In this document: piece by piece, positions 1 to 12,330 of the stretch
Position numbering within the stretch: the stretch's first letter is position 1
How the letters are laid out: every line of letters begins with the position of its first letter
Assembly: GCA_041484665.1 (NCBI GenBank)
Contig: JBGPIA010000037.1
Span: 1 to 12,422 of the forward strand
Source: Candidatus Krumholzibacteriia bacterium
GTDB taxonomy: Bacteria > Krumholzibacteriota > Krumholzibacteriia > JAJRXK01
Direction of reading: 5' to 3'
Length of the DNA stretch: 12,422 bases
Position numbers and translations under genes: made by a program
The notes under the pieces: generated by a model
Told to the model about the DNA's origin: nothing
The model's input: the letters and a program-made list of their open reading frames with translations, nothing else
Databases searched by the model: none

Positions 1-105
1 GGACAACAGGTTGCAAGAAAGTTGAGATTTCGTGTCCCCGACCACTGGGCAGACCCCCCTTTCCCCATCAGCGGACGCGAGTCCAACGACAGGAGGTAGC
101 CGGCC

Positions 106-375
106 ATGCGCACGCCGGAAGTTCGGACGCTGGTTTCGGAACTGTTCGAGGAGGAGGCCCTGGTCCTCGGCGGCCTGGTTGCCACCCACGCGGTGGATGA
201 CGAGCTGGTCTGGAGCCTGGTCCGCAGCCTCGACGTGATCCGCCGGCGGACGCTGGGCCGGGTCGACGAGGGGGCTTCGCCGGCCATTGGCGAGGACGCC
301 CCGAAGCCCGGCGTGCCGCGACCTCATCCGGCGATCGAGGACTTCCTGAAGAGGATTCGCGAGGACACGACGTGA
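106..375 (+). CDS. Small hypothetical protein (89 aa)
   Basis: Strong RBS AGGAGGT at 91-97 before the ATG, GC3-biased codons and same orientation as the operon. No recognisable motif. Confidence 0.75.
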   Translation: MRTPEVRTLVSELFEEEALVLGGLVATHAVDDELVWSLVRSLDVIRRRTLGRVDEGASPAIGEDAPKPGVPRPHPAIEDFLKRIREDTT

Positions 376-471
376 TGGCCGCCTTGGCGCCGACCAAAGC
401 GCCACGGGCAGGATCAATCTAAACAGGCCCGGTCACACCGTGACTGTGGCCATGAAAGAGGAGCCAGAACA

Positions 472-1059
472 ATGATCGTCAGCGATCCATGGAAGCGTGC
501 CGAGCAGATGGCGCGCAATCACGATCAGGGCGCCAGCAAGTGGCTCAAGCTCGTCGACGGCGAGAAGAAGGTCGTCGTCTTCCTCGGCGACCCACACCCC
601 CGCGAGGTCGTCTTCCAGGAGGGCAAGTACGCGACGTTCGATGACAGCCACCGGGCCCAGGGTCTCAAGTCGTCGCTCCGCGTGAGTTTCAACGTCGCGA
701 TCTACAACACCAAGGAGATCAGGATCTTCGAGCAGGGCTCGATGTTCTTCAAGGACCTCCTGCGCGTGCGCGAGAAGTTCCGCCTGGACCGCTGGGCGTT
801 CGAGATCCAGCGCAACGGTGCCGCAGGTGATCCCAAGACGACCTACAGCATCCTGCCTGAGCGCGAGCTCACTCCGGAGCAGCAGAAGGCTTACCAGGCG
901 CTGCCGCTGTTCGACCTGGTGGAGCTGTACGGGGGCAACGCTGCGGCGCAGCCGACGCCGGTCAGCCAGGGCGCCGGGCCCGCTGCCGTCGGCGAGACAG
1001 GCCCCACGCCGGCCACCGCCGTGCCCCAGGCCGACGACGATCGAGATCTTCCGTTCTGA
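472..1059 (+). CDS. Putative phage-type single-stranded DNA-binding protein
   Basis: RBS GAGGAG at 458-463. Beta-rich, aromatic N-terminal core (WLKLVDGEKKVVVFLG...FEIQRNG...TTYSILP), a Pro/Ala/Gly linker and an acidic tail ending DDDRDLPF like the SSB C-terminal motif. Lies next to nuclease and primase genes. Confidence 0.7.
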   Translation: MIVSDPWKRAEQMARNHDQGASKWLKLVDGEKKVVVFLGDPHPREVVFQEGKYATFDDSHRAQGLKSSLRVSFNVAIYNTKEIRIFEQGSMFFKDLLRVREKFRLDRWAFEIQRNGAAGDPKTTYSILPERELTPEQQKAYQALPLFDLVELYGGNAAAQPTPVSQGAGPAAVGETGPTPATAVPQADDDRDLPF

Positions 1060-1067
1060 GCCCGCTT

Positions 1068-1577
1068 GTGAGCGTCTCGACTGCAGCAGCGTACGTGAGG
1101 GCGTCCCCAGGGCGCCCCATCTCCGCGACTGACCTCGTGGTCGTGATCGATACGCGCGAGCAGCTGCCCTACCGCTTTCCGCGGTCGGTGGTGCAGACGC
1201 TGCAGTCAGGGGACTACTCGCTGGTGGGATACGAGGACTGGGTGGCCATCGAGCGCAAGACGAAATCGGACGCCTACAGCTCGCTGGGGCGAGATCGACC
1301 GCGATTCGAGAGGGAGATGGAGCGGCTCGCCGAGCTGGACTACGCAGCCGTGGTCCTCGAGGTCAGCCTGCGCGAGTTCCTAGTGGCGCCCTACCACTCG
1401 TGCCTGAACCCGCGCGCCGCGGTCAACACCCTGCTCGCGTGGTCGATCAAGTACGACGTCCACGTCTTCTTCGCGGGCAGCCGGGAGTGCGGCAACGCGA
1501 TCACCCTGCGCCTGCTGGAGAAGTACCACCGCTACCGCATCGAGCCGGGGCGGTCGTCCCAGGTTGGCGCGCAGTGA
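1068..1577 (+). CDS. ERCC4/XPF-domain endonuclease (stand-alone)
   Basis: ERCC4 signatures VIDTREQ, GDY and IERKxxxD are all present, followed by R-F-x-x-E-x-x-R. GTG start 8 nt after the upstream stop. Confidence 0.9.
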   Translation: MSVSTAAAYVRASPGRPISATDLVVVIDTREQLPYRFPRSVVQTLQSGDYSLVGYEDWVAIERKTKSDAYSSLGRDRPRFEREMERLAELDYAAVVLEVSLREFLVAPYHSCLNPRAAVNTLLAWSIKYDVHVFFAGSRECGNAITLRLLEKYHRYRIEPGRSSQVGAQ

Positions 1578-1585
1578 GGCAGGCC

Positions 1586-3967
1586 ATGGCCGAGACCATC
1601 GAGGGGGCCAGGGACGTGCTCGTTGAAAGCGGCACGGTGGCAGGCGAGGCGAGCCCGGGCGGCTTCCCACGGCAGGCCGAGGACCCGGTTGCCCTGCGCA
1701 CGGAGGAGGTCCGCGCCGGCATCGCGCGAGGCTGGGCGTTCACGCCGCTGAACGGGAAGAAGCCAATCCTCAAGGCGTGGCAGAAGCGCCCCAAGCCTCG
1801 GTTGGACGAGGCCCTTGTCTGGGCACGTCAAGGCAACATCGGCCTTCGGACCGGCGCGATCTCGGGGGTCGTAGTCGTCGACATCGATCCGGGGGCTGAG
1901 ACGAGCGCGCTTGACCTGCCGCGGACGGTAACCGTGGTGACGGGCCGGGGCGGTCGGCATCTGTATTTCCGCGCCCCTGACGTCGAGATCTGCAACTCCG
2001 CTGGCAAACTTGCCGAGCACGTCGACTTCCGCGGCGACGGCGGCCAGGCGGCATTTGTCGGATCGGCGCACCCCGACACCGGGCAGGTGTACCGGTGGGC
2101 AGACGACTTGTCCCCGGACGATGTCGTGCTGGCGCCGTTGCCCGACTGGATACTCCACGCAGGGAAGGGCAACGGCTCCCCTGCCAGCGATGCTGGGGCG
2201 CCCGCCAAGCCCGATCGTCCGCGGGCTTACGCGCAGAAGTGTCTCCGCGCGGAGCTGGAGAAAGTGCGGACCGCGTCCGAAGGGCAGCGCAACGACCAGC
2301 TCAACAAGTCGGCCTTCAACCTCGGCCGCTTGATCGCCAGCGGGGACCTCGACCGCGCCGACGTCGAGCGCGAGCTGCTCGTCGCAACGGCGCTGCCGGA
2401 TGCGGAAGCCCGGCCGACGATTCAGTCGGGGATCGACGCGGGCATGCTGGAGCCGCGGGGCCCGGCGCAGGGCCGACACACCGTCCTCGTTCCGGGCGGG
2501 CACCGCACCGACGACGGGGCTTACAAGGAGGTGAGCGAGAAGGAGTTTGCCCAGGCGGTGCTCCACGCCATCCCGGAGGGCCAGATCTACCGTCGAGGCG
2601 AGCCGGGCGTGCCGGGCGAGCTGCTGGGCAGCCCCGGCTCGCGCTACTTCAACGTCCTCGACTCCGACTCCAGCCGCCTGCTCATCGGCGAGTTCGCACG
2701 GTTGTGCAAGTGGACGAAGGCAACGCGAGGAGAAGACCCGAAGCTCGTCGTCTGTCCCGTCACCAAGGCGCACGCTGGTCTGGTCCTGGCGGAAGCGCGC
2801 GGCAACGATCGCGTGCGCAGGATCGAGCTGATCGCTCCCTACCCGGCCTACGGGTGCATGCCAGGCTGGAACGCCAACGGGATCTACTGCGACCTCGTGG
2901 CGGAGCTGGTCGATCTGGAACCCGAGTTGGACAGCGAGACGATCCACTGCGCCCTCGAGGACCTGCTCATCGACTTCCCGTTCGCCGACGAGGCCAGCCG
3001 ACAGAACTTCATCGGTCTGATGCTGACGCCCCTCCTGCGGCCGATCATCGAGGGCAACGTCCCGCTTCACCTGGTCGCCTCCCCACTGGAGCGGACGGGC
3101 AAGACCAAGCTGTGCGAGGAGATCTTCGGGGGCACGCTCCTGGGCTACCCCACGCCGGCGCTGCAGCTGTCGGGCAGCGAGGAGGAGATCGACAAGCGGA
3201 TCGTGGGGTTGCTGCTCAAGGGGACCCCGCTCGTCCACCTGGACAACCTCCGCGCCTACGTCGACAGCCCCGCCCTGTCCAGCTTGATCACGGCCTCGCG
3301 CTACCAGGGGCGGGTGCTGAGCACCAACGCCATGCCCGCGTTGTCCAACCAGGCGGTGCTCGTGGCGAGCGGCAACAACGTGCACATGTCGGGCGAGATG
3401 GCCAAGCGGACGGTGCCCATCCTGCTCCAGCCCTCCGACGATGCCCCCGAGCTGCGCAGGGACTTCAAGCACCCCGACCTGCGGGCGTTCGTGCGGGACT
3501 CGCGCCGCCTGAACCTGGCTTGCCTGCTCGGGATGATCGCTCGCTGGGAGCAGCAAGGGCGCCCTCAGGGGGAGCAGCGCCTCGGCGGGTTCGAGGCGTG
3601 GTGCGCGATCGTGGGCGGCGTCATGCGGGCCAACCGGTTCGACCGCTGGCTGACCAACGCCAGGGACTGGCAGCGCCAGGCCGACCCCCACGGGGAGGAC
3701 CTCATCACCTTCGTGCGGCTGTGGCGCGAGCGGCACGGCGAGGTGCCCGTCTCGGCCAACCAGCTCATGGCCCTCGCCGACGAGAACGACCTGTTCCTCG
3801 ACGAGCTCAGGGGCGCGACCGAGAAGGGCAAGCTGGGCTCGTTCTCCAAGCGGGTGCTGGGTCGGCACAAGGACACGCCAGTGCGCGGGCGCACGATCCG
3901 GCAGCTGCGGACGGGGGCGGAGCGGCTGTGGAAGCTGGAGCAGGCCAGTGCCAATGACACGTCGTGA
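1586..3967 (+). CDS. Bifunctional DNA primase/polymerase (Prim-Pol, AEP) fused to a PriCT-like region and a C-terminal P-loop ATPase/helicase (about 793 aa)
   Basis: AEP motifs VVVDID, TGRGGRHLYF and VDFRGDGG; GQRNDQLNKSAF helical segment; Walker A-like ERTGKT, Walker B LVHLDN, sensor ASGNN and AKR arginine-finger candidate. Start moved from 1400 to ATG 1586 (or GTG 1574 overlapping the ERCC4 stop) because 1400 lies inside the ERCC4 gene. Confidence 0.88.
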   Translation: MAETIEGARDVLVESGTVAGEASPGGFPRQAEDPVALRTEEVRAGIARGWAFTPLNGKKPILKAWQKRPKPRLDEALVWARQGNIGLRTGAISGVVVVDIDPGAETSALDLPRTVTVVTGRGGRHLYFRAPDVEICNSAGKLAEHVDFRGDGGQAAFVGSAHPDTGQVYRWADDLSPDDVVLAPLPDWILHAGKGNGSPASDAGAPAKPDRPRAYAQKCLRAELEKVRTASEGQRNDQLNKSAFNLGRLIASGDLDRADVERELLVATALPDAEARPTIQSGIDAGMLEPRGPAQGRHTVLVPGGHRTDDGAYKEVSEKEFAQAVLHAIPEGQIYRRGEPGVPGELLGSPGSRYFNVLDSDSSRLLIGEFARLCKWTKATRGEDPKLVVCPVTKAHAGLVLAEARGNDRVRRIELIAPYPAYGCMPGWNANGIYCDLVAELVDLEPELDSETIHCALEDLLIDFPFADEASRQNFIGLMLTPLLRPIIEGNVPLHLVASPLERTGKTKLCEEIFGGTLLGYPTPALQLSGSEEEIDKRIVGLLLKGTPLVHLDNLRAYVDSPALSSLITASRYQGRVLSTNAMPALSNQAVLVASGNNVHMSGEMAKRTVPILLQPSDDAPELRRDFKHPDLRAFVRDSRRLNLACLLGMIARWEQQGRPQGEQRLGGFEAWCAIVGGVMRANRFDRWLTNARDWQRQADPHGEDLITFVRLWRERHGEVPVSANQLMALADENDLFLDELRGATEKGKLGSFSKRVLGRHKDTPVRGRTIRQLRTGAERLWKLEQASANDTS

Positions 3968-4068
3968 CACGTATGACACGTTTCCTTAGATGCTTCTAAG
4001 AAGGAAGGAAGGAATGAAGAATATAAAGGGGGGAAGGAAAACGCGTCACACGTGTCATCACGTGTCAT
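3954..4068. repeat. Inverted iteron array, candidate replication origin
   Basis: TGACACGT at 3955, 3965 and 3974; inverted copies ACGCGTCA 4041 (one mismatch), ACGTGTCA 4050 and ACGTGTCA 4060. The centre holds the palindrome CTTAGA-TGCT-TCTAAG (3985-4000) and an AT-enriched, purine-rich tract (3998-4041). Confidence 0.8.
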
Positions 4069-4099
4069 CGCCGTGGCCTGCACAGGGGGGTTCGGGGTG

Positions 4100-5119
4100 A
4101 TGCTCGCGGCCCTCCGAGCCCTCCCCGCCTACCTCGGCGGCAAGCGCCGGCTGCTCGGCGCCATCTTCCGCGGGCTGCCGCCGCCGGCCGAGGCGCCGGT
4201 GCTCGTGGATCCCTTCCTCGGCGGCGGGTCGGTGAGCCTGTACGCCAAGGCCCGGGGCTACCGCGTGGTGTGCAACGACCTGGCCGAGCGCAGCGCGATC
4301 GTGGGCAAGGCCCTCATCGAGAACGACCGCGTCCGGCTGCAGCACGACGACCTGGTCCGCCTGTGCGTCCATGTGGACGGCCCCGGGTACGCGGAACAGC
4401 ACCTGGCGCCGGACGTCTGGCCGGTGGAGCACGCCAGGTTCCTCGACACCGCCCTGGCCAATGCCCGCGAGCTCGAAGGCCCGAAGCGATGGCTCGCCTT
4501 GCTGCTCGTCGAGCGCCACGCCCTGCGGCTGCGGCCAATGGGCAACTTCGGCGCGAGGACGATCGTGCGACAGGCAGCGGCTGGCGAGTGGGAGTCGATG
4601 AACGAGCACTACGTCCGCGACCTCGCACGGCGTGGCCTGCCCCTGCACCCGATCCGGCTGGCGGAGACGCTGCGTCGCCAGATCAACGCGGGCGTGTTCA
4701 GCAATGGCCAGGAGAACCGCGCCTGCCAGGGCGATGCCGTCGAGTTCCTGCGCGGCGTCCGGGGCGACGTCTGCTACCTGGACCCCCCATACGCTGGGAC
4801 GCAGTCCTACGAGCGTTCGCTGCGCCCGCTCGACGAGCTCCTGCATGGCGGGCCGCTGGACAGCCAGTCGAGCGCGTACAGCACGGACTCACCCGACAAG
4901 GTGTTGCCTCCGCTGCTGGAGGCGGCTGCGCACATCCCCGTCGTCGCGCTGTCGTACGGCAATCACCTCATCGACCTGGGTGACCTCATGGAAATGGTCC
5001 GCCGGCACTGGCCAGTGGTCGAAGGGCGCGCCATCCGCTACGTGCACTGCACCGGGCTGGCTGGCGAGGCGAGTCGCGAGCGGAACCATGAGCTGCTGGT
5101 GATCGGGAGGAAGTCATGA
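4100..5119 (+). CDS. DNA adenine methyltransferase, D12/Dam-like (alpha motif order), orphan
   Basis: N-terminal YLGGKRRL, SAM-binding DPFLGGGSV, NDL and catalytic YLDPPY. Start placed at ATG 4100 (or GTG 4097) because the track start at 4052 is inside the iteron array. Confidence 0.9.
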   Translation: MLAALRALPAYLGGKRRLLGAIFRGLPPPAEAPVLVDPFLGGGSVSLYAKARGYRVVCNDLAERSAIVGKALIENDRVRLQHDDLVRLCVHVDGPGYAEQHLAPDVWPVEHARFLDTALANARELEGPKRWLALLLVERHALRLRPMGNFGARTIVRQAAAGEWESMNEHYVRDLARRGLPLHPIRLAETLRRQINAGVFSNGQENRACQGDAVEFLRGVRGDVCYLDPPYAGTQSYERSLRPLDELLHGGPLDSQSSAYSTDSPDKVLPPLLEAAAHIPVVALSYGNHLIDLGDLMEMVRRHWPVVEGRAIRYVHCTGLAGEASRERNHELLVIGRKS

Positions 5120-5814
5120 AGGCGAGCGAGCTCGAGGTCGTGCAGATCGACGTGGACCGGCTGGTGCCGAACCCCTGGAACGTGAACCGCATGCCCGCGC
5201 GGCTGCAGGCGAAGCTGGCGGCCTACCTGAAGCGTGAGGGGTTCGTCGAGCCGATCGTGGTGCGCCCGCATCCGAAGCAGGATGGCGCCTACGAGATCAT
5301 CGGCGGGGAGCACCGCTGGCGCGTGGCGAAGGAGCGGCTGGGCTACAGCGTCGTCCCGTGCGTGGTGCTGCAGGGGCTCGATGACAAGCGCGCAAAGATT
5401 CTGTCGGTGAATCTCAACAGTATGAAAGGCGAGGCAGTCCCCTCGCTGCTCAGCAAGCTGCTCAACGATCTTCAGCAGGGCATCCCGCTCGATGACCTGG
5501 CGGCGACGCTGCCCTACGACACGAGCGAGATCACGGACTTCCTGTCGCTGCTGCAGGTGCCCGAGGGGTTCGCCGACGAACTCGAAGCCGAGGCCGAGGC
5601 TCAGGACGAGCACGCGCCGGTGGTGCTGACGCTGGTGCTGGACCGCAAGCAGGCGGAGCTGTGGGAAGCAGCGGTGCAGGCGGCCAAGGAGGAAGTCGGC
5701 GGAGCGCGCAACCCGAAGGCGCGGACGCTGGAGCTGATGGCGAGCGAGTTCGTTGCGGCACGCCGTGAGGAGAATGACCCTCGAAAGCAAAGGGTGGCCC
5801 AGGGCGGGGCGTGA
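5116..5814 (+). CDS. ParB/Srx N-terminal domain protein
   Basis: LVPNPWNVN, GFVEPIVVR and YEIIGGEHRWRVAK (GxxR box) motifs. RBS GGGAGG at 5105-5110 and ATGA overlap with the MTase stop. Confidence 0.88.
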   Translation: MKASELEVVQIDVDRLVPNPWNVNRMPARLQAKLAAYLKREGFVEPIVVRPHPKQDGAYEIIGGEHRWRVAKERLGYSVVPCVVLQGLDDKRAKILSVNLNSMKGEAVPSLLSKLLNDLQQGIPLDDLAATLPYDTSEITDFLSLLQVPEGFADELEAEAEAQDEHAPVVLTLVLDRKQAELWEAAVQAAKEEVGGARNPKARTLELMASEFVAARREENDPRKQRVAQGGA

Positions 5815-6209
5815 AGCTGATCGCGGGGCAAGGCGAATGCCGAATGTGTACGCATCAGCGAACGCTGCCACGCTGGCAGATCATACACGCGGCGCGCGGA
5901 GGCGAAAGGTCGCGAATTGTGCGGTGAACAGCGCGGATCATACAGCAGCGTTGTTACTGCTCAGTGAGAAAACGCTGCTTTCTCACGAAGGCCCCCGCGA
6001 GTGGCTAGAACCTGGCCGATCTTCGGGGGTGCAGATTCGCCTCAGGGCAGGCCCGGGGCGCGGGAAGGCCGGGTCGGAACGGCGGCAAGGTGGGCGCAGA
6101 ACGTGACCTCCCGGGAACCCCCGATCATGCCCGGCGTGGCCGGGCGGTCGAGGAGCCAGCGGGCCCCCGGGAGGCGGTAACAGGCTAGGTCTGAGGGGGA
6201 TACGCGGCA

Positions 6210-6971
6210 ATGGAGACGAGCGGCGACCTGGCGGCGCTGCAGGCTGCAGCGGCGGACCTGCCGGCCCAGCTGCGCCCGTTGCCCGGTCAGCTGGAAATCC
6301 GCCCACCGGCGGGCACCGTGGGGCCACACAAGGGGGCCACCCGCCATGGCTGGCACAGCGGCGACGCCGTCCAGATCCCGACATCGCTGACCTGCAATCA
6401 GTGCCCGCTGTACCACGTGAAGCGCAAGGATCCGCGGCACCCGCTGTCCTGTCCCGAGGGACGGAAGAACCGCATCTGCCCCATCCTGACGCGCCAGCAG
6501 ATCGCCTGGGCCGATGGTCTACTCCGCGAGGTGCAAGACGTCACCGGGGCACCCGCCACTCCGTCCGACTGCGCCCGGGTCGAGCAGATCATCCGGCACC
6601 GCAGCCGCCTGTTCCAGATCGAGAACTTCCTGAAGGTCAGCGGGCTCATCGATCTGCGCAGCGGCGAGGTGCGCAACGTGGCCGACCGGCTCACCACCAC
6701 CGAGAACGCGCTGACGCGGGTGCTCGGGGAGTACAGGCAGGCGATCGCGGAGCGCCGCGAGCAGCAGCCGCACCGTGGGCCACGACTCCAGGACTACCTG
6801 CGTGAGATCCAGGAGGGGACCGCTGGCCACGATGCGGGGACCGGTGCTGTGGCCGATCGGATCGCAGACGCCACCGTCCAGGACGCACCCCAGGACGACC
6901 CCGAGGACGCCGACGACGACGACACCGACGAGACCGACGACGAGATCGACGCGGAGGGCAACGCGCCGTGA
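6210..6971 (+). CDS. Hypothetical protein, candidate terminase small subunit with Cys4 motif and acidic tail
   Basis: GAGGGGG upstream; sits immediately before TerL with a GTGA overlap. KGATRHGWHS resembles the NAxKHGxYS motif of many TerS-position proteins. Contains CNQC...C...C, a helical middle and a D/E-rich C-terminus. Confidence 0.55.
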   Translation: METSGDLAALQAAAADLPAQLRPLPGQLEIRPPAGTVGPHKGATRHGWHSGDAVQIPTSLTCNQCPLYHVKRKDPRHPLSCPEGRKNRICPILTRQQIAWADGLLREVQDVTGAPATPSDCARVEQIIRHRSRLFQIENFLKVSGLIDLRSGEVRNVADRLTTTENALTRVLGEYRQAIAERREQQPHRGPRLQDYLREIQEGTAGHDAGTGAVADRIADATVQDAPQDDPEDADDDDTDETDDEIDAEGNAP

Positions 6972-8380
6972 CCCCTGCGATCGACATCCTGCGCGCCATC
7001 CACGACCCCAACATCCTGGGCGACGAGATCTCGCCCGCGCAGGAGGCGGCCCTGCGCGCGCTGTACGGGCTACCCATGACGGCGGACCAGCTGGAGATCG
7101 CCCGCCGCTGCGCTGGCCAGGCGTGGCGCCCGGGGACTGAGTACCGCGAGGCCGCGTTCGTGTGCGGGCGTCGCTCGGGCAAGTCCGACAAGCTGGCGGC
7201 CAACGTCGCGATCTACGAGGCCTTCTTCCGCGACCACCGCCTGTCCGCAGGCGAGACCGGCGTGGTGCTGTTGCTCGCCCAGAACATGCGCCAGGCCAAG
7301 GTCGTGAAGGGGTACGTCGAGGGCAAGATCGAGCGCAGTCCGGTGCTGCGCGGGCACGTCGTGGCCAGTCGCGCTCAGGAGCTGGAGCTGGACAACCGCG
7401 TGACGATCGCGATCCACCCCTCGTCGTTCCGTGCCATCCGTGGGCTGTCTGTCGTGGCCTGCATCTGCGATGAGGTCGCGTACTGGTGGACCGAGGAGGG
7501 CTACAGCAACCCGGACGTCGAAGTGGTGCGCGCGGTGCGGCCCGCCATGGCGACCTTCCCCAACGCCAAGCTCCTGCTGGTCAGCTCGCCGTACGCCATG
7601 AGCGGCGTGCTGTGGGAGATGTGGCAGGCTCGCAACGAGGACCCCGACGCGCTGGTGTGGCATGCGCCCACCGCGCTGATGAACCCGACCGTGTCCCAGC
7701 GATTCCTGCAGCGGGAGCAGCGGCGCGACCCCGAGACGTACGAGCGGGAGTACGAGGCGGTCTTCACCGAGGCACTCAGCTCGTTCCTGCCGGGCGATGC
7801 CATCGACGAGTGCATCGTGCGCGGGCGGGCGGAGGTGCCACCGGACAACCACCGGCACGTCTACATATCCGCTGTCGATGCGGGGTTCGTCGGCGATCGC
7901 TTCACCTTTGCGATCGTTCACCGCGAGTGGGAGCGGAACCAGACGGTGGTGGTCGACTACCTCACGGGCTGGCAGGGCTCGCGGCGCGCGCCGGTGCAGC
8001 TGCGGGAGGTGCTGCCGCACATCAAGGCGAAGTGCAAGGAGTACTGGATCTGTGAGGTTCACGGCGACCAGTACGGAGCGGCGCCGATCGGTGAGGCGCT
8101 GTGGGGCCACGGCCTGAAGCTGAAGGAGGTGCCGTTCACGCAGACCAGCAAGGCGGACATCTACGGGACACTGCGCACGCTGGTGGTGAACCGCCGCATC
8201 GAGCTGCCCGACCACGCGGACCTCATTAAAGAGCTGCGAGCGCTGGAGCTGGAGCTGGTGCCCGGCGGAATGACGCGGATCGGTCATCCCAGCCGTGCGG
8301 GCGCTCACGACGACTACGCCGCGGTGGTGGCGCTGGCGGCGATGCAGGCGCAGGCGCTGAGGATGTGCGGCGTGGGGTAG
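6968..8380 (+). CDS. terL: Terminase large subunit (ATPase + RNase H-like nuclease)
   Basis: Walker A CGRRSGKS, RGLS...CICDEVA Walker B, coupling motif SSP, REYEAVF linker, nuclease VDAG...DRF, GDQYG and C-terminal HDD. RBS GGAGGG at 6953-6958. Confidence 0.88.
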   Translation: MTPAIDILRAIHDPNILGDEISPAQEAALRALYGLPMTADQLEIARRCAGQAWRPGTEYREAAFVCGRRSGKSDKLAANVAIYEAFFRDHRLSAGETGVVLLLAQNMRQAKVVKGYVEGKIERSPVLRGHVVASRAQELELDNRVTIAIHPSSFRAIRGLSVVACICDEVAYWWTEEGYSNPDVEVVRAVRPAMATFPNAKLLLVSSPYAMSGVLWEMWQARNEDPDALVWHAPTALMNPTVSQRFLQREQRRDPETYEREYEAVFTEALSSFLPGDAIDECIVRGRAEVPPDNHRHVYISAVDAGFVGDRFTFAIVHREWERNQTVVVDYLTGWQGSRRAPVQLREVLPHIKAKCKEYWICEVHGDQYGAAPIGEALWGHGLKLKEVPFTQTSKADIYGTLRTLVVNRRIELPDHADLIKELRALELELVPGGMTRIGHPSRAGAHDDYAAVVALAAMQAQALRMCGVG

Positions 8381-8480
8381 GCGGCCTGAACGTGGTGCGC
8401 GTGAACGATGGCGATGACGGCGGCCCTTGATGTTTCCCACGACCAGAGCGTCCATGGTCGCGCCCCAAGGAGGTGGCGCC

Positions 8481-9515
8481 ATGAACTACGCTCCTGACCC
8501 AGGCTGGCACCCAACCGGGCGCGCTATCCGGCAACGTAGCAATGATCGCCCTGGCCGGCAGCCTGGCGAGCCCGCCAGCGACGACGCAGCCCAGACGCCG
8601 CGCACAGCGCCCCACACGGGCGGTTTCCTGGCGGTGGAGGCCCAACAGCTGCATCCCGGCGCGCATCCGGCCCTGTCGGCCGCCCTGCCGCGCTTCCTGC
8701 GCCGCTGCGACGCCGAGTCCACGCGACTGGCGTACGAGCGCGAGCTTCTCCGCTTCATCGCCTGGCTGCCCGAGCGGCCCGGCCCCGAGGTCCTGTTCGA
8801 CTACCGCGATCACTTGCGTGCCCGCGGCCTGGGCCCGACGACCATCCGCTGGCGCACGACGGTGGCGAGGGCGTTCCTGCAGTTCGCCGAGCGCGAGGGC
8901 TACCTGCCCCCCACCCTGGCCGGCGACTTCCGCCCGCCCCGCGGGCACAGCGGCTTCGTACCGCGCGTGCTCACGCAACGCGAGCTGGAGCGGCTGCTCG
9001 CCGCCCCCGACCGCCGCAGCCGCCGAGGGAGGCGCGACGCAGCGATCCTGGTGTGCCTCGGCGTGGGTGGCCTGCGCGCTGGGGAGGTCTGCGCGCTCGA
9101 CGCGGAGGACCTGCTCATCCGCAGCGACGCGGTCGTGCTCACGGTGAATGGCAAGGGCCGCAAGCGCAGGCTCGTCTCGCTGCCCGCGCGGTGGGCCGAG
9201 CTGTTCCGCGGGTACCTGCGCAGCTGGCCGGACGTCAACGTGCCAGGAGCGTCGCTGTTCCGCTGCGTGCGCCCGGGGACCGAAGCGCGGCGCCTCACCG
9301 TGCCGTCGGTCGATTACGTCGTGCGGCACCACGCCACGGCCGCCCACCTGGCTGGCATCAGCGCTCATTGCCTGCGACACACGGCCGCGTCCCTGGCCAT
9401 TGATGCTGGCGAGCCACTCCACCGCCTCCGCGACCGCCTGGGGCACAGCAGCGTGCTCGTGACGTCGCGGTACCTGCACGTGGCGGGCGGCATCACCGAA
9501 GGGAGACAACCGTGA
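8481..9515 (+). CDS. Tyrosine recombinase/integrase (Xer-like, about 344 aa)
   Basis: Complete catalytic set: RD...GLRAGE (R), GKGRK (K), HCLRH (HxxR), LGH and TSRY (Y), with a core-binding domain STRLAYEREL. AAGGAGGT at 8467-8474 favours ATG 8481 over TTG 8427. Confidence 0.93.
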   Translation: MNYAPDPGWHPTGRAIRQRSNDRPGRQPGEPASDDAAQTPRTAPHTGGFLAVEAQQLHPGAHPALSAALPRFLRRCDAESTRLAYERELLRFIAWLPERPGPEVLFDYRDHLRARGLGPTTIRWRTTVARAFLQFAEREGYLPPTLAGDFRPPRGHSGFVPRVLTQRELERLLAAPDRRSRRGRRDAAILVCLGVGGLRAGEVCALDAEDLLIRSDAVVLTVNGKGRKRRLVSLPARWAELFRGYLRSWPDVNVPGASLFRCVRPGTEARRLTVPSVDYVVRHHATAAHLAGISAHCLRHTAASLAIDAGEPLHRLRDRLGHSSVLVTSRYLHVAGGITEGRQP

Positions 9516-9799
9516 AAGTGCGAGAGCTGATCAGCCTTCTGGAGGACATGGAGCCGGATGCGGACGTCTTCCTGCTCACCCAGGAAGCGTATCCGTTTGA
9601 AAACTCGATTGCTGGCGTCTGCGAGCGTCGTGACTTCACCGAGTGCGAGCCCGATCCGGACCCCGCCGCCGAGGCGCCCCATGGCAAGGCCCGGTGGTAC
9701 ACGCGCGAGGGGCGCCTGCCCGCCAGCGACGTCTTTTTGATCGAAGGCGCGCAGCTGCGGTACGGGAACAAGGCGGCGTGGGAGGCGGCGAGGCGGTGA
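9512..9799 (+). CDS. Small acidic hypothetical protein of phage type (95 aa)
   Basis: GTGA overlap with the recombinase stop and purine-rich RBS GAAGGGAG. N-terminus MKVRELISLLEDMEPDADV matches a common pattern of small phage proteins (M-x-V-x-E-L-I-x-x-L...P-D-x-x-V). Confidence 0.75.
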   Translation: MKVRELISLLEDMEPDADVFLLTQEAYPFENSIAGVCERRDFTECEPDPDPAAEAPHGKARWYTREGRLPASDVFLIEGAQLRYGNKAAWEAARR

Positions 9800-10264: not shown

Positions 10265-10455
10265 TGCGGCCGCTTCGATGGCGCGCCGTTGGGGCATCGA
10301 ACAGCCTCGGTGGCGGCGTTTGGAGTGGCGGGTGGAGCGGCCTGGGAAAGTGAGGTGTGCGCTCCACTGGCACAATGGATCTAGCGTAGGAGCACGCTGG
10401 TGTCGCGCAATTGGAGACGTATCTGTATGGCTGTAGTCAAGTCAGGGAGGTCGTC

Positions 10456-12330
10456 ATGCGTTATATCCAAGTACGTTGGCCGTTGACGGCGGGACGATCT
10501 ATAGTAACCCTCGCCACGGCAATCTGGTCCGTCACGTCGTGCTTGCCGTCTGCCTCGGCGGATGACTGGTGCCTCACGCAGATGCCAGACAATGCGGTGG
10601 CCACATGTGTTTACCCCTATCCCCACACCCTTCGGCGCGCCACGCTCCGCATCTTTGTGCACCGCGTCCACGAAAGCAACGGTACCGGTGGTTTGACCCA
10701 GAGTCAGGTCGACGACATGTTGTCCGGAACTGCCGCGATCTACGCGCCGAGGGGTGTCTTTTTCGAAAAGCTCGGTCAAGACGAGATCAACGATTCGAGC
10801 CTTGTCACAGGCTTCACAGGCTGCACCTCTCCGCCGGCTAGTGAGCACTCGGATGCAATTGACATGTACTTGGTTGCGCCAGACTTGGTCAATCCGAGCA
10901 ACAACAAAGGAAAGTCGTGCTACTCCGATGGTGGGACAACCGTCTGGATAAGGCACTCAGCGGCGGTCGTCCTCGCTCACGAAATCGGGCACTCTCTGGG
11001 CTTGGCGCACACGAACGGGGGGACCTGCATCGACCCGCCGGGCGGTGCCCAGTGCGCAACCTGCGGAGACTACGTGTGCGACACGCCACCGGATCCAGGC
11101 CTGTCTTGCGAGAATCCGCCGGCGAATACTATCGACCCCTACACCTGTGCTTGGACCGTCACAAGCCCTGCGCATCCTCTGTGGACCACCTGGGGCGCTT
11201 ACAATCCACCGCCGGGACCGCCGGATACGCACAACATCATGTCAACCCGGTTGTCGTGCCTTAACTGCGAGACGGAGATCACCGCCGGGCAGGCCGACCG
11301 GATCCTCTGCAATCTCGAGGCCGATTCCCGCTACGTCCCGGAACTGGCAAGCTCTGGGGTGATCGCGGCCTTCGTGAATCAGTCTGCCACCGTGGCTTTC
11401 GACTACACTGGCAACCCGTACGACAGCAGAGGGCTGGACTACGACGCCGATGGGGACCTGGACCTCTTCGTGACCGACACCGGGGGACAGGGCGGGCTGA
11501 TGCAGGACCAGAGGCAGCAGAACGCGGCTCTGCCGCAGTTCCACGACGTTCGCCTCACGGCCTTCGCGAGCAGCGACCAGCCGAGCCACCTGCGCCGCCT
11601 CGCCGTAGGCGATCTGGACAATGACGGGAAGGTCGATGTATTCGCGTCGGCTCGGGGCGTGTCCAGCCCTCCCCGGCTCTACCGAAACGTGTACTCCGGC
11701 GGCCAGGGCCTGGTTTTCGACGACCTCGCGAACAACGTCGGTGGCATCGGCGTCGATTGGGCGACATACGCCAATGACTCCTGGACGGGAGCGTTTGGGG
11801 ACTACAACCGAGATGGCCTGGTCGATCTCTACATCGGACGCGGAAATACCGACGGGGCCGGAAAGCCCTCGACTCCCCTCCCCGACCAGCTGCTGCGCAA
11901 TAAGGGAAACGGGCTCTTTGATGTTGCGACTTCGTCCAGCGGACTGGACCTCGTTCCGAACGTGACAACAACCGTCGCCCTATGGGCGGACATCGACGGG
12001 GACAACGACATTGACCTATTCCGCGGGGACCACGGCGGTCTGGGCTCCCAGGTTGTGCAAAATCGTGGGGATGGCACCTTCAACGCCTCTCCCTCGCCTT
12101 TGTACTGGAAGAGCGTGACCGGGGCGGCATGTATGGACGTGGACGGCGACGGGAAGCTCGATCTCATCGTTGTCCAAGACGATCCGCTTCTCCCGGGCCC
12201 GATCGTGGCACTTGGGGATGGCAACGGGAGCTTCCCCGGCGGCCCGATCCTGCCCAATCCGGGATCAATTCCCCTGGGTGGACCCCACTGTTGCAAAAAG
12301 ATCTGGGCACAACGTGATGTGAGGAATTGA
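10456..12330 (+). CDS. Secreted metzincin metalloprotease (M43/pappalysin-like) fused to FG-GAP/VCBS repeats; C-terminus probably truncated by an IS
   Basis: RBS GGAGG at 10446-10450 and a signal-peptide-like N-terminus ending ASA-DD. Zinc motif HEIGHSLGLAH (10978-11010), GDYVCDTPP and NIMS Met-turn typical of M43. Five DxDxDGxxD-type repeats (11437-12171). The last 15 or so residues are out of character. Confidence 0.85.
   Translation: MRYIQVRWPLTAGRSIVTLATAIWSVTSCLPSASADDWCLTQMPDNAVATCVYPYPHTLRRATLRIFVHRVHESNGTGGLTQSQVDDMLSGTAAIYAPRGVFFEKLGQDEINDSSLVTGFTGCTSPPASEHSDAIDMYLVAPDLVNPSNNKGKSCYSDGGTTVWIRHSAAVVLAHEIGHSLGLAHTNGGTCIDPPGGAQCATCGDYVCDTPPDPGLSCENPPANTIDPYTCAWTVTSPAHPLWTTWGAYNPPPGPPDTHNIMSTRLSCLNCETEITAGQADRILCNLEADSRYVPELASSGVIAAFVNQSATVAFDYTGNPYDSRGLDYDADGDLDLFVTDTGGQGGLMQDQRQQNAALPQFHDVRLTAFASSDQPSHLRRLAVGDLDNDGKVDVFASARGVSSPPRLYRNVYSGGQGLVFDDLANNVGGIGVDWATYANDSWTGAFGDYNRDGLVDLYIGRGNTDGAGKPSTPLPDQLLRNKGNGLFDVATSSSGLDLVPNVTTTVALWADIDGDNDIDLFRGDHGGLGSQVVQNRGDGTFNASPSPLYWKSVTGAACMDVDGDGKLDLIVVQDDPLLPGPIVALGDGNGSFPGGPILPNPGSIPLGGPHCCKKIWAQRDVRN

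Follow-up and report, generated by a model that had tools for sequence, protein, structure and literature searches.

The 12,422-nucleotide stretch analysed here (hereafter the window) is the entire contig C37 of G000, a metagenome-assembled genome (MAG) of a sediment-dwelling Candidatus Krumholzibacteriia bacterium (5.45 Mb, 93.65% complete, 54 contigs), and it likely holds the right-hand part of an integrated mobile element that encodes its own large terminase subunit, TerL. An initial annotation, made from the sequence alone, had described a capsid-less element carrying a complete packaging motor, and the genes which it listed are indeed all present on the + strand. Searches against Pfam and PHROGs identify a single-strand DNA binding protein (SSB; 472..1059; phrog_14578, E 2e-8), an ERCC4-type nuclease (1068..1577; PF02732, E 9e-9; phrog_3490), a Prim-Pol primase/polymerase with a C-terminal NTPase-like domain (1586..3967; PF09250, E 4e-30), a D12-class N6-adenine methyltransferase (PF02086, E 7e-19; the open reading frame (ORF) is open from 4052, but the ATG at 4100 is the likelier start, giving 4100..5119), and a ParB-N domain protein (5116..5814; PF02195, E 2e-11). 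These genes are followed by a probable small terminase subunit (TerS) of an unnamed family (6210..6971), by terL (6968..8380; phrog_2, E 1.7e-28, also supported by its fold), by a XerC-like tyrosine recombinase (8481..9515; PF00589, E 3e-19, R-H-R-H-Y residues present), and by a 95-aa unknown protein without assigned family (9512..9799). The names XerC-like, Nu1, GpA, and type I-E-like are those which we presume to apply to the matched families. As had been noted, exactly 100 bp separate the terL stop codon from the ATG of the recombinase (8481). Translational coupling had been claimed; it is supported by 4-nt overlaps between methyltransferase and ParB genes, between terS and terL, and between recombinase and small gene, but not between the ParB gene and terS, which lie 395 nt apart.

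The element extends beyond the window. Bases 1..127 exactly match the last 127 bases of contig C42, as well as the end of contig C38, and C37 and C38 are identical over their first 141 bases. The start initially placed at position 106 is therefore close to a contig end rather than to the end of the element, which continues on C42. Read from its left end, this contig starts with a CRISPR array, which is followed by a helix-turn-helix (HTH) remnant and a gene of 199 aa. Next come an HTH gene, the large serine recombinase (535 aa), a DUF2924 gene, and an unknown of 453 aa, and the last genes are a Com-like zinc ribbon and a sigma-70 region-4-like gene. On the assumption that C42 and C37 join, the element is about 15.5-15.8 kb long (by coordinate arithmetic), and the window would represent its right-hand part. 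The joined architecture is independently supported, as two related loci (L003 and L174) show the same gene order on single contigs. C38 holds a second copy of the element in G000, with 83-87% identical DNA, a D5-type helicase domain in its primase in place of the C-terminal NTPase-like domain of the window, and different origin repeats. We considered C42 as a collapsed two-copy repeat, but this is unsupported: its serine-recombinase part (960-5400) has a single-copy-like depth in related sediment runs and therefore probably belongs to one element copy only, either that of C37 or that of C38. The small HTH gene occurs twice (C42, or L001, 1009-1299 and 2432-2833), on either side of the 199-aa gene and with 80% identity between the copies, and this duplication beside the serine recombinase suggests successive insertions at one site.

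The leftward check for portal, capsid, and tail genes proposed in the initial annotation yields none: Pfam and PHROGs detect no head or tail gene among the C42 genes scanned, and no head gene among those scanned in the window, C42, and C38. Judging from C42, L003, and L174, the integrating enzyme is likely the large serine recombinase; the tyrosine recombinase downstream of terL, initially taken for the integrase, is probably a second enzyme. No terminal direct repeat was found between the C42 arm and the right end of the window, nor was an empty allele found, which serine-recombinase sites require for their definition; no tRNA or tmRNA gene lies near either copy (C37, C38, C42), and Rfam gives no match at E<=0.5 on the window, C42, or C38.

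TerL is 470 aa long and has a PHROGs terminase family match, while no Pfam match is obtained. In the PDB, a profile of 41 TerL sequences matches Thermus phage terminases over their nuclease domains. The AlphaFold model (mean predicted local distance difference test 90.4) has the HK97 large terminase as best Foldseek match (E 5e-22); HK97, T4, and Sf6 are top-ranked, and only phage and herpesvirus terminases appear among the matches listed. Sequence and model thus predict the architecture of the large terminase superfamily, namely an N-terminal P-loop ATPase and a C-terminal RNase H-like nuclease with an acidic triad. The motifs comprise the P-loop GRRSGKS, the Walker B residues D168/E169, and the nuclease residues D304 and D367. 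A phmmer-type search returned 323 proteins, the best 69 at 58-97% identity. All 69 share G67/R68/R69, G71/K72/S73, D168/E169, D304, and D367 without variation, and D449 occurs in 67 (the remaining two show gaps), in agreement with the initial view that the catalytic motifs are intact.

The same annotation had proposed to estimate selection on TerL. Between the two G000 copies, its nonsynonymous divergence (dN) is 0.022 and its synonymous divergence (dS) 0.32. The resulting ratio of 0.068 is the lowest of the seven genes compared, the other six ranging from 0.15 to 0.47. Gene conversion does not account for the low dN, since dS is as large in terL as in the genes around it. Comparisons with five farther relatives give ratios of 0.18-0.25, dS being close to saturation there. 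Purifying selection acts on TerL.

The identity of the gene preceding terL is less firmly established. It overlaps the start of terL, has 151 homologues, encodes a conserved Cys/His motif, and has a predicted helical core. Its position and an ESM-feature match to a Terminase_4 cluster (score 0.91, rank 10; Terminase_4 is annotated on 56% of the cluster members) favour the small terminase subunit initially proposed, but no Pfam or PHROGs match exceeds the cut-off. The fold search returned 0 matches at E<=0.001, which is why the name TerS stays at probable.

Relatives were collected from genome, metagenome, and IMG/VR collections (the best 80 of 190 confirmed loci in one scan). Genes in fetched loci were called with a simple caller, complemented by tblastn for core genes; the caller may miss single genes, as it missed the tyrosine recombinase of the window on test. 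In a FastTree phylogeny of 144 TerL sequences, the window falls within a clade with support 1.0 (partial sequences shorter than 380 aa, i.e. L003, L011, L017, L026, and L138, were left out and placed by identity). Nine distinct close loci extend at least 500 bp past terL: the window, C38, L003, L005, L006/L011 (counted as one), L017, L026, L085/L174, and L138/L173; four others (L007, L008, L010, and L013) are too short to count. None of the nine has a portal gene after terL, a possibility which the initial annotation had singled out, and seven carry the same XerC-like recombinase there. L003 and L005 show no head genes over about 9 kb past this recombinase. Gene order is conserved from serine recombinase and DUF2924 to methyltransferase, ParB, TerS, TerL, and tyrosine recombinase in L003 and L174. 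The latter, a 17.6-kb IMG/VR provirus whose ends are both contig ends, has no head gene; its order is serine recombinase, two DUF2924 genes, AAA, SSB, ERCC4, sigma, primase, helicase, ParB-methyltransferase, TerS, TerL, and tyrosine recombinase. The close members found all have uncultured hosts, and a scan of the host phylum recovered relatives in two of 208 genomes. Two further IMG/VR scans added little: a single-protein scan found 0 relatives in six candidate stretches, and a tyrosine-recombinase profile gave 22 loci, among which the known provirus is the one close match recognised.

The same chassis also occurs with other terminases. DUF2924 is found in 30 of the 208 host-phylum genomes, and 20 regions, selected for long contigs, were fetched. 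Five of them (L232, L233 (broken), L234, L241, and L246) encode a 756-776-aa TerL together with ParB-methyltransferase, a 181-188-aa HTH (TerS-like) protein, and a XerC-like gene. Another one (L227, from the host's family) carries Nu1 and a lambda GpA-type TerL. No portal follows terL in the stretches of these six regions, L234 ending about 150 bases past terL. A complete tailed prophage on the DUF2924/serine-recombinase chassis is represented by L237/L247/L248, and the other 13 regions show no terminase within the stretch fetched. Two more elements of the ~770-aa type, with different replication genes, lie in one IMG/VR contig and have no portal match among the downstream genes scanned, bringing this type to seven regions, against one for the GpA type. 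Compared with one another, the three TerL types give either about 25% identity over 114 aa or no BLAST match at E 0.01, whereas six serine recombinases of these elements are 36-51% identical. Judging from these sequences, terminase lineages have been exchanged on the same chassis, with three lineages involved. The portal-less architecture, whose recurrence across genomes the initial annotation had asked about, is thus found in relatives and in several terminase lineages, and hence does not represent a one-off deletion. Phages related to these terminase types have kept the portal (L273, L274, L278, L288, L247, and L012); for the ~770-aa TerL, it lies downstream in four of the nine loci scanned (the first four of these). 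The ~770-aa type itself (L232:6766-9033, L234, L241, L246, L271, and L272) has a P-loop which, as read from the sequence, lacks the usual lysine. It also carries an additional domain at its C-terminus, which matches another terminase profile (phrog_675) and may be a second copy of the nuclease domain.

The wider TerL family was surveyed with a profile. In a sample of 401 genomes from the phylum to which the L003 genome belongs, 22 contain profile matches, and 20 chromosomal regions of about 20 kb were fetched from 38 matches listed, genes of 330-800 aa being scanned except those already labelled by BLAST. Most of these regions are small islands that encode an integrase, either a primase or DnaB, a short TerS-like protein, and TerL. 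One (L193) contains a portal gene and the other 19 have no portal match, L183 has tape-measure and neck genes, and several have a terL truncated or hit by an insertion sequence. Some 50 loci at a greater distance are ordinary large phages that have portals, and protease or scaffold genes occur in metagenomic loci L004, L052, L060, L075, and L084. Within the TerL family there is thus a gradient, with full phages at one end and terminase-only islands at the other. Cultured carriers include Alcanivorax jadensis and a Methylobacterium plasmid (pM44601 of Methylobacterium sp. 4-46; L141). On this non-mobilizable plasmid, a TerS-like and TerL pair (1343-3132) lies in a 13-kb stretch without annotated phage structural genes, and a wider-family pair is also found on Komagataeibacter plasmids. 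L052 and L183 are small integrase-primase-TerS-TerL islands with a tape-measure-like gene, in which no portal or capsid was detected. L140 (KX853514.1, Virus Rctr16k) is a 16.7-kb partial genome deposited as a virus from an enrichment culture; besides a distant TerL (27%), it encodes an integrase, a protease of the Mu type, and a tape-measure-like protein, with no annotated portal or capsid.

Two non-coding features of the window may be relevant to the element's life cycle. Directly past the primase, inverted short repeats separated by a purine-rich spacer (3954..4068) form a candidate replication origin, as initially suggested: the arms 3954-3983 and 4039-4068 are 87% complementary and constitute the longest inverted repeat of the window. 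C38 and L005 have different repeats at the same position, the repeats changing with primase type. The second feature is a conserved two-armed 29-bp motif (8427..8455, + strand), present once per element 5' of the tyrosine recombinase, which may be a promoter/operator or a recombination site. It is found in the window, C38, L003, L005, L006/L011, and L138, in weaker form in L174, and the only two strong sites in G000 are those of the window and C38. In C38, terL is followed by a DUF4209 (PDC-S39-like) gene, then by the motif, then by a repeat at the contig end. A 34-bp sequence common to window 8426-8459 and C38 was considered as an att site matching a host target, and rejected because the motif is 5' of the tyrosine recombinase in every carrier and G000 has no other strong site. 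The tyrosine recombinase itself has about 65 more N-terminal residues than its relatives and is 45-66% identical to five relatives likewise located after terL.

At the left of the window, a 89-aa conserved unknown protein (106..375, +) is 94% identical to its C38 copy and has a weak homologue in L005, with no family match. On the right, the window stops 2.6 kb past the 95-aa gene. A stretch 79% identical to an island region on C19 (9746..10163, no Rfam match) likely lies within or near the right end of the element, and is followed by a zinc-metallopeptidase/FG-GAP repeat protein (10411..12330, +; Pfam) which is a host gene or cargo, not a head gene. Remnants of the right part of the element occur at C19:34733-35150, C12:74281-74415 and 76476-76587 (C12 holding two remnants of the 95-aa gene), and C1:691924-692024. 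Those on C19 and C12 adjoin large secreted-looking proteins, as is the case in the window and L003, and such genes may be preferred neighbours or cargo of the element. One remnant of the 95-aa gene adjoins a 513-aa ORF (C12:72145-73683), the N-terminus of which resembles what we take, from its sequence, to be a group II intron reverse transcriptase. The CRISPR array adjoining the left arm (C42 1-997) has 29-nt repeats and 32-nt spacers, its first spacer being duplicated and its last repeat cut at 21 nt; the repeat occurs on no other G000 contig. One spacer matches C10 157823-157855 (31/33), a possible self-target, and none matches either element copy or any fetched locus over more than 24 nt. 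Insertion of the element into a CRISPR repeat was considered, given the 21/29 nt of the last repeat, but no other half or array was found, and a degenerate trailer repeat is therefore equally likely. Directly past the element in L005 (13415-21381) are a Lon-like protease, a xis-like HTH gene, a DrmD-like SNF2 helicase, and a type III methyltransferase, which may be defence-like cargo or a neighbouring island.

Our preferred interpretation, held with slightly more than even confidence, is that the element is a helper-dependent phage satellite which has its own complete terminase and packs its own DNA in the empty heads of a helper. The large serine recombinase of the left arm would excise and integrate the element, and Prim-Pol would replicate it from the repeats at 3954-4068. 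TerS would recognise an element-specific site, while TerL would cut the DNA and dock on the helper portal; as its own pair would perform both steps, the element would not need the helper's TerL. Because no capsid-size gene is present, heads would take concatemers, filling full-size helper heads as shown for the phage-inducible chromosomal minimalist island (PICMI). The XerC-like recombinase, perhaps acting at the single 8427-8455 motif, would then resolve multimers to monomer circles, for which the Cre-lox system of phage P1 is an analogue, although the motif could equally be the promoter of the XerC-like gene. Head filling and multimer resolution are the two weakest steps. Swapping the TerS-TerL pair would change the usable helper portal. 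Extending this proposal to a widespread satellite class, in which each member has acquired a complete terminase from a phage lineage, hijacks helpers at the portal, switches helper by TerS-TerL cassette exchange, fills full-size heads with concatemers, and resolves these after injection through a dedicated XerC-like recombinase and its site, is a tentative step that we judge somewhat improbable.

Several observations weigh against a functional satellite. Neither a helper nor an excised circle, an empty site, or a complete copy derived from virions was observed. Read data consisted of contigs from five of the 24 sediment runs listed. In four runs, the depth of copy-specific primase sequence is close to that of the neighbouring FG-GAP gene, with no sign of over-replication. 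The search for excised circles suggested in the initial annotation was negative: neither an attP-like joint at the left arm nor a junction of element ends occurs in run contigs, a result limited to contigs and hence no proof of absence. The identity of TerS is only suggestive, and a Terminase_6N profile missed the window's own TerL, so that family searches do miss divergent genes. Only the window, L003, and L005 reach about 3 kb or more past the tyrosine recombinase. Head genes occur in a minority of metagenomic loci, with a portal in L012, L072, and L115 and a capsid in L032, L115, and L122. Only one of 52 IMG/VR matches is a close relative, classed as a provirus. L003, L138, L233, and several wider-family loci have a broken or partial TerL, and contigs C1, C12, C5, and C19 of G000 hold remnants of the recombinase, of the small gene, of the HTH gene, and of the right-end sequence; the element family both persists and decays. 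Finally, L227 and the full prophage L237/L247 have GpA proteins that are 49% identical, and the single GpA case may therefore be a simple deletion. The same runs provide two further observations. In all four, contigs join the window's SSB to C38-like letters at the start of the ERCC4 gene (1086-1094), which suggests mosaic copies or a difference in assembly path. Summed contig depth over the tyrosine recombinase (8716-9130) is 3-5x that of the copy-specific primase, and there may be more related copies than the MAG shows.

The frequency of broken copies and remnants, together with the complete tailed prophage on the same chassis, is what would be expected if DUF2924/serine-recombinase prophages repeatedly lost everything past terL and the terminase lingered without a role. 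NitKor-E1, a cryptic integrated element of Ca. Nitrosopumilus koreensis AR1, is judged a likely relic in the available part of its description (Krupovic et al. 2019, PMC6563490). We nevertheless find decay of this kind unlikely here: the two portal-less G000 copies differ by a dN/dS of 0.068 at a dS of 0.32, about 69 TerL homologues with 58-74% identity keep all motifs, a dedicated recombinase and motif lie past terL in relatives from different datasets, and no close relative with a portal was found.

Defence-like genes beside some members (the PDC-S39-like gene in C38, the DrmD-like helicase and type III methyltransferase by L005) and the CRISPR array abutting the left arm raise another explanation, namely that the terminase occupies or poisons the portal of an invading phage, or cuts its DNA, and so protects the host, without efficient packaging of the element. 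A poison would however not require intact ATPase and nuclease sites, a TerS partner, an origin, and a replication module, and TerL has no PADLOC match; such an anti-phage device appears quite improbable. Even less credible is a role outside capsids, in which TerS-TerL would cut concatemers to unit length or pump DNA into vesicles or a conduit, with the XerC-like recombinase. The absence of detected head genes and the presence of a XerC-like gene next to terL in two separate TerL lineages would fit, but the fold matches listed are phage and herpesvirus terminases only, all three lineages have portal-bearing phage relatives, and the element shows neither conjugation nor secretion genes. Lastly, a bipartite or mis-assembled prophage with head and tail genes elsewhere in the genome or outside the bin, as an incomplete MAG in 54 contigs, a probably missing left arm (one of two), and a window ending soon after the small gene might allow, is highly implausible given that L003 and L005 run on without head genes and that G000 has no match for four portal and one capsid families (PF04860, PF05133, PF05136, PF05065, and PF06074; the PF06074 control matched nowhere).

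If the satellite interpretation is true, a terL under strong selection without portal or capsid represents a further form of helper exploitation, between phage-inducible chromosomal islands (PICIs) on the one hand and capsid-forming PICIs (cf-PICIs) on the other, and many 'defective prophages' or lone terL matches would be mobile elements that are still intact. The occurrence of three terminase lineages on a single chassis also provides a natural set for the question of TerL-portal specificity.

How does the element compare with known systems, as far as the available parts of the cited papers describe them? terL is a hallmark of tailed phages and, among satellites, of cf-PICIs: in the SatelliteFinder models it is specific to the latter, whose gene sets further include portal and head-tail genes (de Sousa et al. 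2023, PMC10085698). The element has the integrase, regulator, primase, 10-20 kb length (assuming the C42-C37 join), and lack of tail and holin genes of a classical PICI, which however uses the TerL of its helper, whereas an intact terL is present here. It shares TerS, TerL, integrase, and primase with cf-PICIs, but the portal, capsid, head-tail adaptor, and connector which these encode were not detected among the genes scanned in the window, C42, and C38. PICMI likewise lacks capsid remodelling, and packages concatemers in full-size helper heads (Barcia-Cruz et al. 2024, PMC10803314). It is however about 6 kb long, lies next to fis, and has no packaging gene, the word "terminase" being absent from the main text of that paper, while our element is about 16 kb long, carries TerS-like and TerL genes, and has no fis among its annotated neighbours. 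PICIs and PICI-like tycheposons resemble it in size (10-20 kb), integrase, primase, a packaging gene, and absence of tail and lysis genes; they carry terS or a capsid gene (Hackl et al., 10.1101/2020.12.28.424599), instead of terL with two recombinases. Tycheposons moreover have a lineage-specific tyrosine integrase at a tRNA gene, where the element has no tRNA and a serine recombinase with DUF2924.

Among prophages, L237/L247/L248 shares the integration module, SSB/AAA, ParB-methyltransferase, and terminase slot, but continues with portal, S49 protease, capsid, tail, and lysis genes. The linkage of portal, HK97 capsid, and tail genes to the terminase that characterises Caudoviricetes prophages is not found in Pfam and PHROGs searches, and small portal-less HK97 viruses, at least as partly described, represent the opposite case of a capsid without terminase (PMC13669383). 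On the features tested, the element is thus not a PICI, cf-PICI, PICMI, or tycheposon, yet a satellite-like nature remains the most likely one, a judgement that we make with modest assurance. Full-text searches, covering main texts and few subscription papers, found neither a terminase-only satellite family nor such DUF2924 elements described. The closest case that we found in print, in the available part of its source, is NitKor-E1, in which TerS directly precedes TerL and a tyrosine integrase is present with no other tailed-virus gene. Compared by description only, NitKor-E1 is a single archaeal element, whereas the elements described here form a bacterial family with a serine-recombinase chassis, replication genes, purifying selection, and three terminase lineages.

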